64,000 bases of DNA from an uncultured Gemmatimonadales bacterium (GTDB taxonomy: Bacteria; Gemmatimonadota; Gemmatimonadetes; Gemmatimonadales; Gemmatimonadaceae), in assembly GCA_963851265.1 (NCBI GenBank), contig CAWKNZ010000003.1:64001-128000 (forward strand), in the 5' to 3' direction. Position 1 is the stretch's first letter. Each line of letters starts with the position of its first letter. Under the pieces are notes generated by a model. That model ran no database searches and was not told the DNA's origin. It was given only the letters and a program-made list of their open reading frames with translations. A program made the translations under genes and the position numbers. This document shows positions 54,588-61,429 of the stretch, in pieces.

Positions 54588-55541
54588 TCAGCGGAGGTAT
54601 TCCGTTAGGCTCAGCCCCATCACCTTCGACGAGGCCATCATGGCAGTCTGGTACGCGGTCTGGCGTGCGACCATCTCGGTGTAGGCCTGCGCGGTGTCGA
54701 CCTGGCTCAGGTCGGACTTCTGCTGCGTGAACGTCGTTTGCAGCGCGGCGAGGCTGGTCTTCACGGCGTCGACCCGGTTCTGGCGCGCGCCGAGGTCGCC
54801 GACGCGGACCTGGACCGAGTCGACCGCGGCATCGACCGACGTGAGGGCGTTGCCGATCGTGGACGGGTCGGCGCTGGAGAGCGATTGCTGCAGCTGCTGG
54901 AGCGCGGCGAGTACGCCCTTGCTGCTGTCGGGCGCTCCGTTGGTCGTACCCAGGAAGACCGACGTGCCGTCGTGCGGTCCGGGGAGGGTCTGGCCGCCGG
55001 CGCCGACGTCGACCGAACGTTCACCCGTCGGGTAGCGCGGAACGGGCGGTGCGCCGACCGTCGCCGCCGGATCGGTGGGGACGAAGTTCGGTTGCGTGGC
55101 GTCGAACGGCTCGCGCCCGTCGTTGCTGGTGCCGCCGAAGAGATAGGTGTTGCCGACCTTCGTGTTGCCGAGGTTCACGGCCTGCGCGAAGAGTTGCTGC
55201 ACCTCCGCGGCGGCGGCGGCGCGCGAGCTCGCGCTCGCCGTCGAGGAGTTCCCGGCGGTGCCGAGTTCCTTCGCCCGGTTCAGGATGTCGGTGATCTGCT
55301 GGAGCGCGCCGTCTTCTGCGTTGAGGAGCGTGCTCGTGCCCGTCGCGTTGCGCGTGTACTGGTCGATGCCGCGCAGCGAGGCCTGGGCTCGCACGACCTG
55401 ACTCGCCGCGGTCGGGTCGTCGCTCATCTTGGTCAGCTTGAGGCCGGACGAGACCTGGTCCTGGGCGTCGGACAGCTTGGAGGACGCGTCCATCAAGCGG
55501 GCGATGATGGCCTGCGTCTGGCCGGCGGTAGTTACGCGCAT
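54588..55541 (-). CDS. flgL: flagellar hook-associated protein FlgL
   Basis: MRVTT...QVSSGLKLTKMSDDP, YLFGG, LGARQNR, LSLTEYLR. Confidence 0.95.
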   Translation of the reverse strand: MRVTTAGQTQAIIARLMDASSKLSDAQDQVSSGLKLTKMSDDPTAASQVVRAQASLRGIDQYTRNATGTSTLLNAEDGALQQITDILNRAKELGTAGNSSTASASSRAAAAAEVQQLFAQAVNLGNTKVGNTYLFGGTSNDGREPFDATQPNFVPTDPAATVGAPPVPRYPTGERSVDVGAGGQTLPGPHDGTSVFLGTTNGAPDSSKGVLAALQQLQQSLSSADPSTIGNALTSVDAAVDSVQVRVGDLGARQNRVDAVKTSLAALQTTFTQQKSDLSQVDTAQAYTEMVARQTAYQTAMMASSKVMGLSLTEYLR

Positions 55542-55685
55542 GCGACGGTGGCGGTGCGGGACGAACAGGAGCGCCCCAGCGGGCGGGACGGGCCGCGAAG
55601 CGACCCGCGGAGGACGCCCGAACGGTTTCCGCGGTCACGACAGCGGCACGGTGCGCCGAGGCTGGGCCGGCAATACCTTCCGCCC

Positions 55686-57134
55686 ATGGCCACCATCCTC
55701 TGGGTCGACGACGACGCTGCCGTCGGCCTGATTCTCGACGACACGCTGCGCCGCGCGGGGCACGAACCGGTGGGCGCGCGGCACGTCGCCGAGGCGCTGC
55801 ACGTGCTCGAGCGGTCGGCGATCGACCTCGTGATCTCGGACTACCGGATGCCGGGAATCACGGGCCTCGAGTTCCTGACGATGTTGCAGCGCGAGGGGCA
55901 CGACGTGCCGGTGATCATGCTGACCGGGCACGCGTCGATCGAGCACGCGGTGACGGCGATCAAGGCCGGCGCGGTGGACTACATCACCAAGCCCGTGCGC
56001 CCGCAGCAGCTCGAGCTGGCGGTGGACCAGGCGCTCGAGTACGTACGGCTCAAGCGCGAGAACGAGGCGTTACGGCGCGAGGTGAGCGCGATCCGGAGCG
56101 AGCGGCAGATCGTCGGCGAGTCGCCGGCGATGCGCCGGCTGCTGCAGACGGTGAAGACGGCCGCGCCGACGCGCGCCACGGTGCTGCTCCAAGGGGAGAG
56201 CGGAACGGGCAAGGAGCTGTTCGCGCGCGCGGTGCACGACCAGAGCGAGCGGCGCGACCGGCCCTTCATCCAGCTCAATTGCGCGGCGCTCCCGGAGGGG
56301 CTCATCGAGAGCGCGTTGTTCGGGCACGAGAAGGGCGCGTTCACGGGGGCGATCCGGCGGGTGGAGGGCGCGTTCGAGCGCGCGCACCGCGGGACGCTGC
56401 TGCTGGACGAGGTGAGCGAGATGCGGCTCGACCTGCAGGCGAAGCTGCTGCGCGTGCTGCAGGAGCAGGAGTTCGAGCGGGTGGGCGGGACGCAGCCGGT
56501 GAAGGTGGACGTACGGATCATCGCGACGACGAACCGCGACCTCGCGTCGGAGGCGGCGGCGGGCACGTTCCGGCAGGACCTCTACTACCGGCTGAGCGTC
56601 ATCCCGCTGTCGATTCCGCCGTTGCGGGAGCGGCCCGAGGACGTGCCGCTGCTGGCGACGCGATTCGCCGTGCGGACGGCGGACGAGATGGGGAAGCGGT
56701 TCGACGGGATCGCGCCGGAGACCATGCTGGCACTGCAGCGCTACACGTGGCCGGGGAACGTGCGCGAGCTGCAGCACGTGATCGAGCGGGCGGTCATCCT
56801 GTCGCCGGAGGCGACGCTGCTGCCGCACGCGCTGGAGCCGGCGCGGTTTGGGCTGACGGGTGCGGGGATCGGTTCGGGCGGGCCGGGGGCTCGCGGCGCG
56901 GCGCTGGCCGCACTCGCGGCGTCGAACGGCGCGGCGGGGGAGGGCGGCGGCGCCGCGGACGACCCGATGCGGGTGGTGCTCCATTCGCTCGACGTGACGC
57001 GCGCCGAGGCGGTGTTGATCGAGCGCGCGCTGGAGGTCGCCAAAGGCAACCGGACGCGCGCGTCGGAGCTGCTCGGGATTTCGGTGCGGACGCTGCGGAA
57101 CAAGCTGAACGGACCGGGGCGCGAGGTGGCCTAA
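55686..57134 (+). CDS. sigma54-dependent response regulator (NtrC family)
   Basis: Receiver domain, GESGTGKE, GAFTGA, LDEV, QAKLLRVLQE, WPGNVREL, Fis-type HTH. Confidence 0.96.
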   Translation: MATILWVDDDAAVGLILDDTLRRAGHEPVGARHVAEALHVLERSAIDLVISDYRMPGITGLEFLTMLQREGHDVPVIMLTGHASIEHAVTAIKAGAVDYITKPVRPQQLELAVDQALEYVRLKRENEALRREVSAIRSERQIVGESPAMRRLLQTVKTAAPTRATVLLQGESGTGKELFARAVHDQSERRDRPFIQLNCAALPEGLIESALFGHEKGAFTGAIRRVEGAFERAHRGTLLLDEVSEMRLDLQAKLLRVLQEQEFERVGGTQPVKVDVRIIATTNRDLASEAAAGTFRQDLYYRLSVIPLSIPPLRERPEDVPLLATRFAVRTADEMGKRFDGIAPETMLALQRYTWPGNVRELQHVIERAVILSPEATLLPHALEPARFGLTGAGIGSGGPGARGAALAALAASNGAAGEGGGAADDPMRVVLHSLDVTRAEAVLIERALEVAKGNRTRASELLGISVRTLRNKLNGPGREVA

Positions 57135-57165
57135 CGCACGGGTCGCGCAGGCGCGGGCGGCCCTG

Positions 57166-58170
57166 TCAGGCGACCTCGTCGCCGGCGAGCGCGGTAAGGA
57201 GCATGTGCGGCGCCGTGAGCGCGGCGAGGCCGGCGAAGAGCACGCGTACCGCCGCGGGGGTGGCCGTGGCTGGTGCGGCGTGCGCGCCGCCGGCGAGGGC
57301 GAGCCAGGCGACCGCGCCTAGCACGAGCGTCGCGAGCGTGGCCGGAAGTGCGGCGCGGGCGAACCAACCCCACGCGCGGCGCGGGTGCGCGGGGTCGAGC
57401 GATGCGGCCAGGGCGAGCGCGTGGCGGGCGGAGTGGAGGAGGCAGAAGTAGACGAGGAACCCGACGAACGGCGGGAGTGTCGCGGCGACGGCGGGTACGG
57501 CGAGGCACTCGAGCGCGTCGGCGACGTGTGCGCGGCGGTTCGGGCGGCGGCGTGCGGCCGCGGCGTGGGCGAGCGCGAAGACGACACAGCCGGGCGCGAC
57601 GACGCACCAGGCGAGACGACCCGATGCGGCAGTGATGAGGTCCAGCGCGGCCACCGACGCGCCCGGTGCGACCCACGCGAAGGCCTGGCGGACAGCGACG
57701 GGGTGTGCGGCCGCGGGGACCAGGATCGGCGCCGCGCCACGCACCATCACCTCGGCCCACGCGAGGCCGCGGGGTGCGCGAGCGGCGGCGACGTCGCCGA
57801 GGCCGAAGTGGAGCGCGGACGCCGCAAGGAACGCGGCGAGCGTGATGGCGGGCGCCGACCACCAGCCGACAACGATCACCGCGCCGAGGAGGACGTAACC
57901 GGCGTGGAAGGGCGCCCACCAGTGCCGACCGAGGCGCCGGGCGAGCCAGCGCCGGCCGACGAGGGGATCGAGGGCGCCGTGCGGAACGCCGAAGACCGCG
58001 ACCGCCGCGACGAGGACGGCGACCTGCACCGCGAGCGCCGGCTGCACCGAGGCGGGGCGGAGGGTCGCCACGACAACGATCGACCAGCAGAGCGCGCCCG
58101 CGGCGACGGTGTGTCGCGCGCGCCACCTCGGGAGCCAGACCGACACGTCGGAGACGCGGGCCGCGGTCAC
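57166..58170 (-). CDS. blh: Brp/Blh beta-carotene 15,15'-dioxygenase
   Basis: His motifs GVPHGALD, SALHFG, FCLLHSARH, LTAPH; multi-TM; GTGA overlap with the crtY stop. Confidence 0.93.
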   Translation of the reverse strand: MTAARVSDVSVWLPRWRARHTVAAGALCWSIVVVATLRPASVQPALAVQVAVLVAAVAVFGVPHGALDPLVGRRWLARRLGRHWWAPFHAGYVLLGAVIVVGWWSAPAITLAAFLAASALHFGLGDVAAARAPRGLAWAEVMVRGAAPILVPAAAHPVAVRQAFAWVAPGASVAALDLITAASGRLAWCVVAPGCVVFALAHAAAARRRPNRRAHVADALECLAVPAVAATLPPFVGFLVYFCLLHSARHALALAASLDPAHPRRAWGWFARAALPATLATLVLGAVAWLALAGGAHAAPATATPAAVRVLFAGLAALTAPHMLLTALAGDEVA

Positions 58171-59336
58171 ACGGCGGCGAGGCGACACGCTTCGGCCGCG
58201 AACGGCAGCGGCGGCAGCGCCGCAATCACGCGGGCCGCGTCGGAGGGCGAGCCGACGTCCGAAAGAAAGCGGACGAGCGCGTCGGGATCTGCGGCCGCGA
58301 ACAGGCGCACGAACATGGCCGGCGCCGCCGCGGGGTCGCTCCGCAGTCGTCGCAGGAAGACGTGGTCGAGCCAGCGCGCGACGGCCCCGCGCGGGCGTGG
58401 CACGGCTGCGGGTCCGGGCGTGGTGAGCGTGTGGGCGAGCGCCGCCGCGTCGCGCTGGATGGCGAGGAAGGCGTACCCGGTGGACGGCTTGGCCATGCCG
58501 CCGGCGACGCCGATGCGGGTGACGCGCGGCGCGGGACGGCGGACGACGGGTGCGGCGTCCATGGGGATGACGCCGGCCTCGCGCGAACGCACCCCGTACG
58601 CGCCCCCCGTGAGGCGGTCGGCGTAGCGCGCGAGGGCCGCATCGAGGGCGACAGGCGCCGGCGCGCGCTCGGCGACGACGGCCACCTCGACCAGCGCGTC
58701 GTGGGCCGTGTAGGGGAGCACGTAGCCGAACGCGAATCCGTCGCCGGGCTGCTCGACCGTGAAGTCCATCAGCGTGGCAACGCCGGCGTCGAAGGCGGCG
58801 TGGGTCGTGTGCACCACGGCGCCGGCGAACGCCTGGACGAGGCGCGCGGCGCGCGGCGCGGCGCTGGCGGGCGGCGCCGCGCTCGCCGCGGCGCTCGGCC
58901 GGCTGTCGAACACACGCGCGGCGTGCAGTGCGCCCCCCGTGGCGTACACATGCACCGCGCTACCCACGTCGGCGAGCGCGTCGACGCGTTCGCCGAGGCG
59001 CAGTTCGACGTGGCGCGCGCGGCTGATGCGCGCGAGGGCCTCGGCGTAGAACGCGTCGGCGGGGACGTGCTGATACGCGTAGCGCGTCGAGCCGCGCTCC
59101 ACGACCGCCCCGTCGGGCGCGACGACGCGCCAGCGCGACCAGCGGTGCGTAACGGCCGCGGCGAACGGGTGCTCGTGGACGTCCCAATAGCACCACGTGC
59201 GGTCGCGGCCGAACGTCGTCCGCTCGTCGAGGACGACGACGCGACCCGCGCGTGGTCCCGCGTCGGCGAGGCGTGCGGCGAGGCTCAGCCCCGCGCACCC
59301 CGCGCCGACGATCACGACGTTGGCGTCGCGCGGCAC
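58167..59336 (-). CDS. crtY: lycopene beta-cyclase
   Basis: IVGAGCAGLSLA, DRTWCYW, TLMDF, GGMAKPSTGYAF. Confidence 0.92.
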   Translation of the reverse strand: MPRDANVVIVGAGCAGLSLAARLADAGPRAGRVVVLDERTTFGRDRTWCYWDVHEHPFAAAVTHRWSRWRVVAPDGAVVERGSTRYAYQHVPADAFYAEALARISRARHVELRLGERVDALADVGSAVHVYATGGALHAARVFDSRPSAAASAAPPASAAPRAARLVQAFAGAVVHTTHAAFDAGVATLMDFTVEQPGDGFAFGYVLPYTAHDALVEVAVVAERAPAPVALDAALARYADRLTGGAYGVRSREAGVIPMDAAPVVRRPAPRVTRIGVAGGMAKPSTGYAFLAIQRDAAALAHTLTTPGPAAVPRPRGAVARWLDHVFLRRLRSDPAAAPAMFVRLFAAADPDALVRFLSDVGSPSDAARVIAALPPLPFAAEACRLAAV

Positions 59337-59373
59337 CGCCGGTCCGTGCGGTCAGAGTGGATGGAACGCCAGG

Positions 59374-60201
59374 CTAGCGCACCCCCGTACCGGCGACATC
59401 GCGACGCTCACGAGCGCGCTCGCGCTCCGACCCGACGCGGCCCGAGCTCGGATTCGGCGGCAGCGAGGTGATGGGCTCGACCACCGGGCGATAGTTGGCC
59501 GAGTGCGGTTCGAGCTGCGCGCTGCCGGCGAGGGTCATGAAGCCGTAGCCGACCTTCGCGATGATGTCGAGCACGAGGAAGATCAGTGCTTCGGTCGGGG
59601 CCTCGAAGAGGCGGAACCCTTCGGGCGCGCCGAGCCAGACGAGCGGGTACAGGAGCCAGAGCACGGACAGGACGGTCGCGTTGCGCGTGAACACGGCGCC
59701 GACCGTCGGGCTGGTCTGGCTTTTGGCCTCGCGGCGGAGCGGCCCCCAGATCAGCGCGTACACAGCCAACTGGAACGCGCAGCTCACGATGTACCAGGTG
59801 ACCTTGGAGCCCTGCACGTGCGACAGCGCGGCGGCGAGGCCGGTGCCCATGATCGCGACGTCGGCGACGAGGATGCCGACGACGAGCGCGGGGCGGCGCC
59901 GCAGCTCACCGAGCGCCGTGGTGCAGAGCGCGGCGAGCAGGAGTGGCGTCGTGATCGACCAGTCGACGTAGCGGGCGAGGTAGACGTGCCGCGACTGCTC
60001 GGGGATCTCGACCCGGAGCTGGTCGAGGCCCATGAACGTGTAGAAGACGGCCGCCGTTAGGCAGACGAGGAGGTGGAAGACGTACTCCGGCTCGGAGTCG
60101 CGCGGCTTGCCGCGCGACCGCGCGATCATCGCGAACGCGCCGAGCGCGAGGACCACCGTGCCCACCCAGTAAAACTGCCGCTCACTTGCGTACGGTTCCA
60201 T
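59374..60201 (-). CDS. microbial (type 1) rhodopsin, DTA motif
   Basis: Seven TM segments; helix C ARYVDWSITTPLLLAAL, helix F LWLLYPLVW, helix G LDIIAKVGYG (retinal Lys); purine-rich RBS before ATG 60201. Confidence 0.96.
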   Translation of the reverse strand: MEPYASERQFYWVGTVVLALGAFAMIARSRGKPRDSEPEYVFHLLVCLTAAVFYTFMGLDQLRVEIPEQSRHVYLARYVDWSITTPLLLAALCTTALGELRRRPALVVGILVADVAIMGTGLAAALSHVQGSKVTWYIVSCAFQLAVYALIWGPLRREAKSQTSPTVGAVFTRNATVLSVLWLLYPLVWLGAPEGFRLFEAPTEALIFLVLDIIAKVGYGFMTLAGSAQLEPHSANYRPVVEPITSLPPNPSSGRVGSERERARERRDVAGTGVR

Positions 60202-60367
60202 ATTCCCCCTCCCCTCCCTCGAACCAGTGTCGTTAGTCGACGCGGCGCGTCGATCCCGCCCGGCCCCGCGCCGGCGCGTGTTGCGTACAGGCTGGTGGCA
60301 TGCCTCACGCCAGCAGGCGCTCAACGCGCCGGCACGTGCGCGGGTTCACAACGCCTCACGGGCGGCG

Positions 60368-61429
60368 CTACGGCGCGAACCGCTCGCCCTGGTTGTACTC
60401 GCCGACCGCGCGGTCCTGGACGGCGCGCGCCCAGCCGGGCAGGCCGTCGCTGACCTCGTGTCCCGCGCGCCGGGCCGTGCCGCCGGCCGCGGGTGCCGGG
60501 AGGGTGCGCTCGGCGAGTCCGGCCACGTCGGCGGCCAGACCCGGCGCGAGGTCGTGGAATTTGGCGAGGAGCCACGCGCTGGCCGGCGTGATCAACTCGG
60601 CGTCGCCGTGCGCTGCGGCGTCGAGGATGCGGCGGGCCATGAGGTCGGGCGCGATGCTCGCGAACGGCGCCGAGCTGTTGGTCGCGAACCAGCGGTATTC
60701 TTCCGGCTGGTCGCCCTTGAACACGGCGTGCACCGTGCTGCCGGTGCGGATCTCGCCGGGACACACCGTGGTCACGAGTACCCCGTGCTTGGCGAGCGAG
60801 GCGCGGAGCCCTTCGGAGAGCCCGACGAGGGCGAACTTGCTCGCCGAGTAGGGAAGCAGGTGCGGCACCGACACCTTGCCGCCGATGGACGCGATGTTGA
60901 CGATGCGCCCCGAGCGGCGCGCGCGCATGCCCGGCGACACGGCCAGCACCGCGTGCAGCGCGCCGTAGAAGTTAGTCGCCAGTGCCTCGTCGAAGTCGGC
61001 GCGCGCCATCTGTTCGGAGGGGCCGACCTCGATGGTGCCGGCGTTGCTGATGAGCAGGTCGATGGGGCCGAGGCGGCGCTCGACGCCCGCGACCAGATCG
61101 TTCACGTCCTGCTCGACCGTGACGTCGCACCGCAGGGCGAGCACGTCGTCGGCGCTGCCGCCGCGGTCGGCGGCGCGCTCGACGAGTTCGGCGAGGGCGC
61201 GACTCAGGGCGACCTCGTCGCGCGCGCAGATCGCGACGCGGGTGCCGCCGTCGACGAGCTGGCGGGCGAGCTCGAGGCCCAGGCCGCGCGAGCCGCCGGT
61301 GACGAGGGCGACCTTGCTGCGGAAATCGACGCGGCGCGCGCGGCGGGTGAGCGCGCGCGCGGTCCAGTAGGCCGCACCGGCCGCGGTGAGCCAGAGGGCG
61401 GTGTTGGGCGGACGACGAGTGGCACGCAT
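60368..61429 (-). CDS. SDR family oxidoreductase
   Basis: VTGGSRGLG, SNAG, SIGG, YSASK. Confidence 0.92.
   Translation of the reverse strand: MRATRRPPNTALWLTAAGAAYWTARALTRRARRVDFRSKVALVTGGSRGLGLELARQLVDGGTRVAICARDEVALSRALAELVERAADRGGSADDVLALRCDVTVEQDVNDLVAGVERRLGPIDLLISNAGTIEVGPSEQMARADFDEALATNFYGALHAVLAVSPGMRARRSGRIVNIASIGGKVSVPHLLPYSASKFALVGLSEGLRASLAKHGVLVTTVCPGEIRTGSTVHAVFKGDQPEEYRWFATNSSAPFASIAPDLMARRILDAAAHGDAELITPASAWLLAKFHDLAPGLAADVAGLAERTLPAPAAGGTARRAGHEVSDGLPGWARAVQDRAVGEYNQGERFAP

Follow-up and report, generated by a model that had tools for sequence, protein, structure and literature searches.

A deep-branching lineage of donor-less rhodopsins in Gemmatimonadota, encoded in a losable retinal cassette

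We analysed a 64,000-nucleotide stretch (the window) of contig CAWKNZ010000003.1, from an uncultured Gemmatimonadales bacterium, which carries a rhodopsin gene (coding sequence 59374..60201, minus strand; 275 amino acids plus stop). The encoded protein lies on a small, deep branch of the donor-less rhodopsins, a lineage not previously studied. In its residues and in the tree it falls among the donor-less His/Tyr rhodopsins (also called DTG/DTS rhodopsins), and it is probably a light-driven outward H+ pump. The kind of pump is already known; what is new is the lineage, with its seemingly remodelled ionone pocket, variable release group, conserved tail and losable cassette.

The gene is intact and encodes a type-1 rhodopsin with Schiff-base Lys216, predicted to bind retinal and the sole rhodopsin of the 4.6-Mb genome. 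The start codon is the ATG at 60201, directly preceded by a purine-rich Shine-Dalgarno stretch, GAGGGAGGGGAGGGGG (putative ribosome-binding stretch read from the sequence, 60204..60220, minus strand). Because 12 related cluster representatives share this start Met, a longer TTG-started frame is unnecessary. Residues 9-227 match Pfam Bac_rhodopsin PF01036 (E 9.9e-45; 153 bits against a cut-off of 24.6); no NCBIfam family matched the rhodopsin at E <= 1e-5. An AlphaFold2 model computed from 27 aligned sequences has seven helices and a mean predicted local distance difference test score of 88.1, with just the last ~45 residues poorly defined. The solved folds nearest to this model are SsGHR (8xx8), RxR (6kfq), SpaR (8anq), deltarhodopsin (4fbz) and PspR (7w74).

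Residues were compared with bacteriorhodopsin (BR) using BR numbers that we take to be correct, and the helix B and C residues of 4fbz are presumed equal to those of BR. Three checks were made: an alignment to 4fbz, a gap-free span in which residues 11-228 of the protein correspond to residues 11-228 of the BR chain, and a MAFFT alignment of 261 sequences, where the BR-like DTD rows carry T, EE, D and F in the relevant columns. They place R77, D80, T84 and A91 as a DTA motif, H43 at BR T46, D114 at BR D115, and W182, Y185, P186, W189, E194, E204, D212, A215 and K216 at the same-numbered BR positions. K216 coincides with the Lys of solved rhodopsins, Tyr219 corresponds to BR F219 and PspR Tyr213, and Thr223 aligns with PspR Ser217. 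H43 falls in the column holding T46 of deltarhodopsin and the DTD sequences, and the His of the Pantoea, SpaR and PspR sequences. Every residue that the initial annotation had assigned by manual alignment, the helix-B His among them, is thus in its proper place. Since every one of the 15 sequences of the protein's clade has H43, D80, T84, D212, K216 and Y219, the motif set is no chance match.

With Ala91 at the BR D96 position there is no carboxylic proton donor, which sets the protein apart from the BR-type DTD/DTE pumps. It shares R82/D85/T89/D212/K216, W182/Y185/P186/W189, E194/E204 and the helix F-G numbering with BR, deltarhodopsin and RxR, and differs from these DTD pumps in having Ala for D96, His for T46, Tyr for F219 and Gln at M145. 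A non-carboxylic residue 96 and DTA-like motifs are features that it has in common with xenorhodopsins. An inward proton pump of that type would agree with the occurrence there of DTA/DSA/DTL-type motifs and with the presence of BcXeR among both the fold and the sequence matches, and yet we consider it extremely improbable. In the excerpts available of a 2026 numbering paper, xenorhodopsins are characterised by a Pro in place of D212, by DSA/DTL/DTS motifs and by the lack of a release group (PMC13739731), whereas the protein keeps D212 and both release glutamates, and the Pro212 DTA sequences form an outgroup clade (100/100) far from its own. These residues and the tree rule out a xenorhodopsin identity, in line with the earlier observation that the xenorhodopsin Pro is absent.

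The alignments instead bear out the reading that this is a D-T-x rhodopsin lacking a donor and carrying the helix-B His typical of the DTG/DTS group. For PspR and PaR, the DTG group of Harris et al., the accessible part of Okhrimenko et al. 2023 (PMC10154332) describes Gly in place of BR D96 together with a conserved His at T46. The protein has the Asp, Thr and small residue at positions 85, 89 and 96, the His at 46 and the Tyr at 219 that characterise this broad group, and differs from it in having Glu39 where a second His is expected. Suzuki et al. 2022 (PMC8927995), in the passages available, state that the equivalent Tyr213 is conserved in 95% of the family.

A residue census placed these features in context. 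Its 261 rows were gathered by similarity to the protein and are of mixed representative kinds, so that the fractions describe this sample and not nature; 133 of them combine D85, T89 and K216 with His at T46 (His-type rows). The third motif residue in these is G in 59, S in 35, A in 30 and T in 9, and within the 15-row clade the motif is DTA seven times, DTG seven times and DTS once. The initial annotation had singled out DTA as unusual; being common among His-type rows and toggling inside the clade, it is not itself unusual. Among the named rhodopsin loci from other genomes (L009-L081), close relatives likewise switch among DTG, DTS, DTA and DTT, which makes the third motif residue evolutionarily labile. 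The outward-pump motifs that the TTG rhodopsin paper names as known are DTE, DTK, DTG and DTS, so far as its accessible text goes (PMC11532467). In the literature searched, which covered few subscription papers, we found nothing on a DTA-motif pump or on this clade; DTA members are recorded, in its searchable portion, only within the MpR-like clade (2 of 60).

Tyr219 is present in 127 of the 133 His-type rows and in all 15 clade rows, and His at position 39 in 92 and 12, respectively. E194 and E204 occur together in eight His-type rows, five of them in the protein's clade, and DTA, His, E194 and E204 are combined in three rows only (the protein itself, P0002 and P0214). The BR-like glutamate pair noted earlier is therefore real in this protein, but it is no property of the lineage, since just 5 of the 15 members keep it. 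Glu/Asp200 (E200 here) and Arg197 are retained throughout the 15 rows.

Phylogenetic analysis was carried out in two steps. A FastTree phylogeny of 261 sequences comprised all usable matches and the open reading frames of 80 named loci, and a more careful IQ-TREE analysis (LG+C20+F+G4 PMSF; 93 rows by 248 columns) used rows chosen to represent each FastTree group, with four Pro212/Ser212 DTA sequences as outgroup. Both recover a Gemmatimonadota-type clade of 12 rows with full support (100/100) on a stem of 0.55. It groups with two unusual metagenome sequences, P0066 and P0113 (100/99), and lies within a 62-row group (96/96) made up of 60 D85/T89/K216 His-type rows, P0076 (TTG, with Gln at BR T46) and P0066 (Lys-less, ETA). 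The match of P0076 to SsGHR (8XX8), a TTG anion pump, has an E-value of 1.5e-117.

Also inside the 62-row group, and excluding the protein, are the SpaR/PspR "mirror proteorhodopsin" clade (6 rows, 100/100) and a Methylobacterium/Methylorubrum clade (11 rows, 100/99). The former is anchored by Pantoea anthophila (L048), which matches SpaR 8ANQ at 1.9e-108 and PspR 7W74 at 3.9e-71. In the latter, MpR is represented by proxies, namely named Methylobacterium and Methylorubrum loci, and the Methylorubrum proxy shows E-E-x-D ahead of the helix-B His. These two clades fall together in a 47-row group (88/87), with the Gemmatimonadota-type clade outside. Forcing the protein's group to be sister to the SpaR/PspR clade cost 7.6 log-likelihood units and was not rejected (approximately unbiased test, p = 0.114). 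The deep branch order is thus not secure; that the protein nests inside no characterised clade is, and the phylogeny, in which such nesting had been proposed as a refutation, returned a separate clade instead.

SpaR, PspR and PaR (8ANQ, 7W74) resemble the protein in the D-T-small motif, the lack of a carboxylic donor, His at T46, Tyr at F219, Leu at BR L93, Glu at BR E194 and terrestrial hosts. The SpaR and PspR folds are also very similar to its own, with a template modelling (TM) score of 0.75 normalised by the protein and 0.91-0.92 by the solved chain. Sequence identity is nonetheless ~32-33%, and the protein differs in Ala at 96 (Gly/Ser in SpaR and PspR), Glu39 (the second His), E204 (Thr/Ser), W189 (Phe), Gln144 (Phe), Ile-Met at 117/118 (Met-Ile) and its conserved tail of 47 amino acids. 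Okhrimenko et al. 2023 (PMC10154332) delimit, in the text available, a SpaR-like clade of 103 DTG/DTS/DTT proteins by a blastp E of 1e-65, and report that it pumps H+ outward, SpaR doing so at acidic pH. The protein gave phmmer E-values, from a different program, of 4.7e-32 with SpaR and 1.2e-25 with PspR, and these values together with the Pantoea-anchored clade place it outside that group.

The best solved match is SsGHR (8XX8), a TTG inward anion pump (E 2.4e-35, TM 0.80, 36-37% identity). It comes from a soil host and shares the 62-row group, Tyr219 and a small residue at 96 facing a cytoplasmic cavity. Unlike SsGHR, which has Thr at D85 and Gln at T46, the protein has Asp80 and His43, as in cation (H+) pumps, and it is not a glycylhalorhodopsin. 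The MpR-like clade is likewise of the His46/Tyr219 donor-less type with carboxylates before the helix-B His, but has Leu where the protein has W189, and D and (A, S, G or T) where it has the glutamates 194 and 204. Its E32/E33/D35 signature is found only in part (S36, E37, E39), and the protein is no member.

Taking these comparisons together, we think it likely that the protein is a light-driven outward H+ pump of the donor-less His/Tyr (DTG/DTS) type, the "pantorhodopsin" or "mirror proteorhodopsin" kind, with direct proton uptake from the cytoplasm. It would be produced alongside its own lycopene cyclase and retinal-forming dioxygenase. The residues consistent with pumping are Lys216, the counterion pair D80/D212 with R77, T84, the missing donor at A91, and His43 with Tyr219. 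Photoisomerisation would transfer the Schiff base proton to D80, and a proton would exit to the outside via the R77/E194/E204 region, in a BR-like manner in the protein's own subclade. The Schiff base would then be reprotonated straight from cytoplasmic water, in a cavity organised by H43, Y219 and T223 and without a carboxylic donor; such direct uptake would make turnover slow as pH rises. PspR, PaR and SpaR are described as outward H+ pumps in the available parts of both papers (PMC10154332, PMC8927995). For PspR, the accessible text of Suzuki et al. 2022 (PMC8927995) reports that the donor is absent and that the Schiff base takes its proton back directly from the cytoplasmic solvent, the rate rising in proportion to [H+]. 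It further reports that His33, His37, Tyr91, Tyr213 and Ser217 line a hydrated cavity, that H37Y/R slow reprotonation, that G84D/E raise activity, and that E188 (BR E194) matters for release, with Thr at E204.

A variant of this scheme, implied when the protein was first called a His-donor pump, has His43 itself acting as the internal proton donor and not merely organising the water cavity. This His occurs in every one of the 15 clade sequences, and its position, BR T46, adjoins that of the donor. A donor role for the helix-B His was originally argued, according to the citing papers as far as available (PMC10154332, PMC8927995), and bulky replacements of His37 are reported to block pumping by SpaR (PMC10154332). 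Yet the photocycle of PspR H37N is that of the wild type and reprotonation follows [H+], from which its authors, in the text available, favour direct uptake via the water-filled cavity and regard any donor role as minor (PMC8927995). We therefore consider a His43 donor unlikely, and the term His-donor an overstatement.

The transported ion might also be a cation other than H+, Na+ or Li+, as claimed for MpR, the DTG rhodopsin of Methylobacterium populi. MpR-like proteins are described as having three carboxylates (E32/E33/D35) in front of the helix-B His (PMC10154332, in part available), and S36-E37-P38-E39 of the protein supplies two of these three carboxylates, with a Glu39 unlike most of its clade. 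Set against this, the protein lies outside the Methylobacterium-containing clade (100/99), 12 of the 15 clade members have the SpaR-like His39, and D80/T84/E194/E204 make up a classical H+ path. The Na+/Li+ report is moreover known here through a citing paper alone, itself available in part (PMC10154332), and we find a Na+ or Li+ pump quite unlikely.

Several observations weigh against outward proton pumping by direct uptake. Identity to characterised or solved relatives is only 32-37% and the protein stands outside the clades with assayed members. At the base of the group to which the protein belongs stands SsGHR, a TTG anion pump, and function has therefore shifted in the course of this radiation; MpR-like relatives are reported as Na+/Li+ pumps by the citing paper, as far as its text is available (PMC10154332). 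Two cavity residues of PspR are replaced, His33 (in PspR and SpaR) by Glu39 and Tyr91 by Gly98. Both release glutamates are kept in 5 of the 15 clade members, so a BR-like release step is not general in the clade. The make-up of the census, described above, limits the residue frequencies in the same way.

The clade has signature residues around the chromophore. Gln144 (BR M145) replaces the Phe found in 115 of the 119 other His-type rows, and Gln occurs here in <=1% of the 246 other rows. Ile117-Met118 stands in place of the Met-Ile of other His-type rows, Phe143 in place of Ala (101 of 119), and Trp189 is shared with 6 of those 119 rows, 108 having Phe, Leu or Val. Positions 117, 143 and 144 presumably face the beta-ionone end of the BR retinal pocket. 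Gln144, the Ile117-Met118 swap and Phe143 would thus remodel that end of the pocket, and the clade-specific pocket residues, Gln144 among them, probably shift colour. Further signatures that few or none of the other 119 His-type rows share are the extracellular His72, His128, Asp60 and Arg63, and also Pro38.

The rhodopsin is the first gene of a rhodopsin-crtY-blh cassette, all on the minus strand. A lycopene cyclase of the CrtY type (58167..59336; PF05834, 4.7e-60), below the NCBIfam equivalog cut-offs and syntenic in relatives, lies 37 nt downstream of the rhodopsin stop. Its end is overlapped by 22 nt by the start of a Brp/Blh beta-carotene 15,15'-dioxygenase gene (57166..58188; PF15461, 7.7e-51; NCBIfam TIGR03753, 180.8 bits against a cut-off of 95.25), predicted to form retinal. 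On a different contig (C5), a crtB gene (phytoene synthase) is next to a crtI-family desaturase gene that scores above its cut-off. With crtY and blh in the cassette and crtB and crtI elsewhere, the genome is plausibly able to make retinal. On one side the cassette is flanked by a short-chain dehydrogenase (SDR) gene, and on the other by a convergent sigma-54 response-regulator gene adjoining flgL. The latter two (54588-57134) are a flgL-like flagellar hook-associated gene (minus strand) and a sigma-54 response regulator (plus strand) whose best NCBIfam matches are of AtoC/NtrC/FlbD type, all below cut-offs; both are backbone genes conserved in the genus. Scans of 56900-60600 found no sigma-70-like promoter and one terminator-like site, no more than in shuffled sequences.

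This genomic site was compared across the genus by tblastn with the window genes. In G404, which carries a 90%-identical rhodopsin, the order is M13 peptidase, CDF, SDR, rhodopsin-crtY-blh, sigma-54 regulator and flgL, and one locus of G401 has the same order minus crtY. In G403 (G403:C186; L105:7898-8015) the site is empty, with the SDR and regulator genes ~118 bp apart and homology to the window stopping at the ends of these two genes. Within the spacer, 58 nt weakly match (72%, E 1e-4) positions 59777-59834 of the window, inside the rhodopsin gene; this hints at a cassette deletion or loss in G403 and not at an ancestral empty site. A metagenome contig (L088:6001-7143) has, at the syntenic site, a decayed cassette flanked by intact genes for SDR and the sigma-54 regulator; the cassette retains rhodopsin residues 1-147 with a frame break and blh fragments, and lacks crtY. 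The second rhodopsin copies of G404 and G401 are located elsewhere, without SDR or regulator neighbours. The retinal cassette is polymorphic at this one site, being present or absent, and is mobile or losable.

The accessory genes vary at these loci. In G401 they are split, one of its two loci (L091, on G401:C3, and L092, on G401:C5) keeping just blh and the other just crtY. The second full cassette of G404 (L090, G404:C5) is on a 208-kb contig, and its rhodopsin ends early, at 253 amino acids with a TAG inside the match, so that the end of the tail is missing.

The C-terminal cytoplasmic tail of the window protein (residues 229-275, 47 amino acids; 59377..59517, minus strand) had been noted as charged, and it is R/E-rich at its end. 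The motifs LEPH..YRP..EP and GSERERA..RR are conserved across the clade; AlphaFold2 confidence is low here, with a possible helix at 258-270. The ratio of nonsynonymous to synonymous substitution (dN/dS) against the 90% copy in G404, estimated by NG86 from this single pair of high-GC sequences and hence rough, is 0.11 overall, 0.108 for the seven-transmembrane core and 0.105 for the tail. Core and tail are both under purifying selection, and the conserved tail would have a selected role.

One such role would be in a photosensor or regulated pump, the tail coupling the protein to a partner, possibly the sigma-54 regulator and the flagellar genes. The conservation of the 47-residue tail and its low dN/dS fit this, as does the position of the regulator and flgL next to the cassette. 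That adjacency, however, reflects backbone gene order and not function: regulator and flgL adjoin the SDR gene in the congener without a cassette, and the second-copy loci lack them. We rejected a functional link to these genes on that ground. In addition, the natural 253-residue paralogue does without the end of the tail, the window protein keeps every pump residue, and the cassette includes no transducer-like gene, which leaves a sensory or regulated role with little probability. A broader proposal appears doubtful, namely that the clade is a distinct kind of donor-less pump that combines BR-like early release with direct uptake, a polar, colour-shifting pocket (Gln at BR M145) and a tail that gates the pump or couples it to a partner. 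If it held, this would be a regulated or sensory-energetic rhodopsin and not merely one more pantorhodopsin.

A search of 5.8 billion proteins, with 65 matches among 8000 scored candidates, gave 12 other 90% clusters at 65-88% identity, the next best match being at 46%. In a library of 1.84 billion representatives one 50% cluster (representative P0005, 74%) stood above 46%, and 14 proteins matched at E <= 1e-30. Identity to anything outside the protein's own clade is at most 46%. A scan of a genome collection, in which 279 of 290 stretches were relatives and 80 of these were kept, and from which records near the window's genome were possibly left out, gave none above 45% identity. The protein's 90% cluster includes GJG86622.1, "rhodopsin [Gemmatimonadetes bacterium T265]", 90% identical over 273 residues, and a paralogue-type cluster contains GJG89584.1 (75%), also from T265. 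This strain is placed in Gemmatimonadota in the NCBI taxonomy, in agreement with the host phylum first proposed for the window.

Within Gemmatimonadota the clade is confined to one genus among the genomes searched. Two of the four other genomes of the genus carry rhodopsins, each with two copies (G404, 90% and 74% identity; G401, 74% and 74%); the two without a match are 78% and 85% complete. None of 400 other sampled genomes of the phylum, 395 of them at least 90% complete, had a match at E <= 1e-10, and a genome of the same family (G287) gave a weak match only (1.2e-7). A scan of metagenome contigs found a single relative, the decayed copy described above. In the portions available, Mujakic et al. 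2023 (PMC10581226) call rhodopsins very rare in Gemmatimonadota, having surveyed more than 400 genomes, and note only proteorhodopsins (5 genomes) and xanthorhodopsins (3 metagenome-assembled genomes). The present protein is of a terrestrial donor-less type that differs from both. A preprint by Ortiz et al., as far as its text is available, describes novel soil clades from other phyla whose identity to bacteriorhodopsins and "pantorhodopsins" is below 50%. Words sampled from the gene were found at 0.27 in one soil-metagenome DNA run and at 0.05-0.06 in two air-metagenome runs, from which no evidence of habitat or expression was taken; no RNA run was listed among the sequencing runs matched to the gene.

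The clade offers a natural experiment, in which the donor position toggles among A, G and S and the glutamates E194/E204 are carried or lost. It allows one to ask what His46 and an empty donor site do, and whether a BR-like release group alters the acid-restricted pumping seen in SpaR, and Gln144 in the ionone pocket is a candidate colour-tuning site. The variant merits an expression experiment, though in principle it comes as no surprise. Because a near-identical gene occurs in the named strain T265, tests of physiology in the native host are conceivable, if that strain is cultured, and presence or absence within one genus supplies matched strains for fitness comparison.

Other sequences met in the searches extend the range of these rhodopsins. 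His-type donor-less rhodopsins are abundant in loci L009-L081, many of them from Acetobacteraceae, Acidobacteriaceae, Lichenihabitans and Lichenibacterium, with record titles that point to lichen-associated and other terrestrial bacteria. The nearest sequence outside the clade, P0066 (275 amino acids, on a 1.5-kb metagenome contig; 40% identity), has Arg where the Schiff-base Lys216 is expected, and Glu and Leu in the BR D85 and W182 positions. It retains His43, D212 and a tail motif, LEP....YR, and may be a relative of rhodopsins that carries no retinal. Loci from metagenome-assembled genomes of Rubrobacteraceae (L011, L015, L024, L026 and similar) form a DTG group of their own, which has Ser at the BR T46 position, keeps Phe at F219 and carries the two release glutamates. 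L026 matches RxR (6KFQ) only at 4.5e-47, but RxR is a DTD protein, and we rejected the view that the group is simply RxR-like. The group represents a further donor-less lineage, without the His/Tyr pair.

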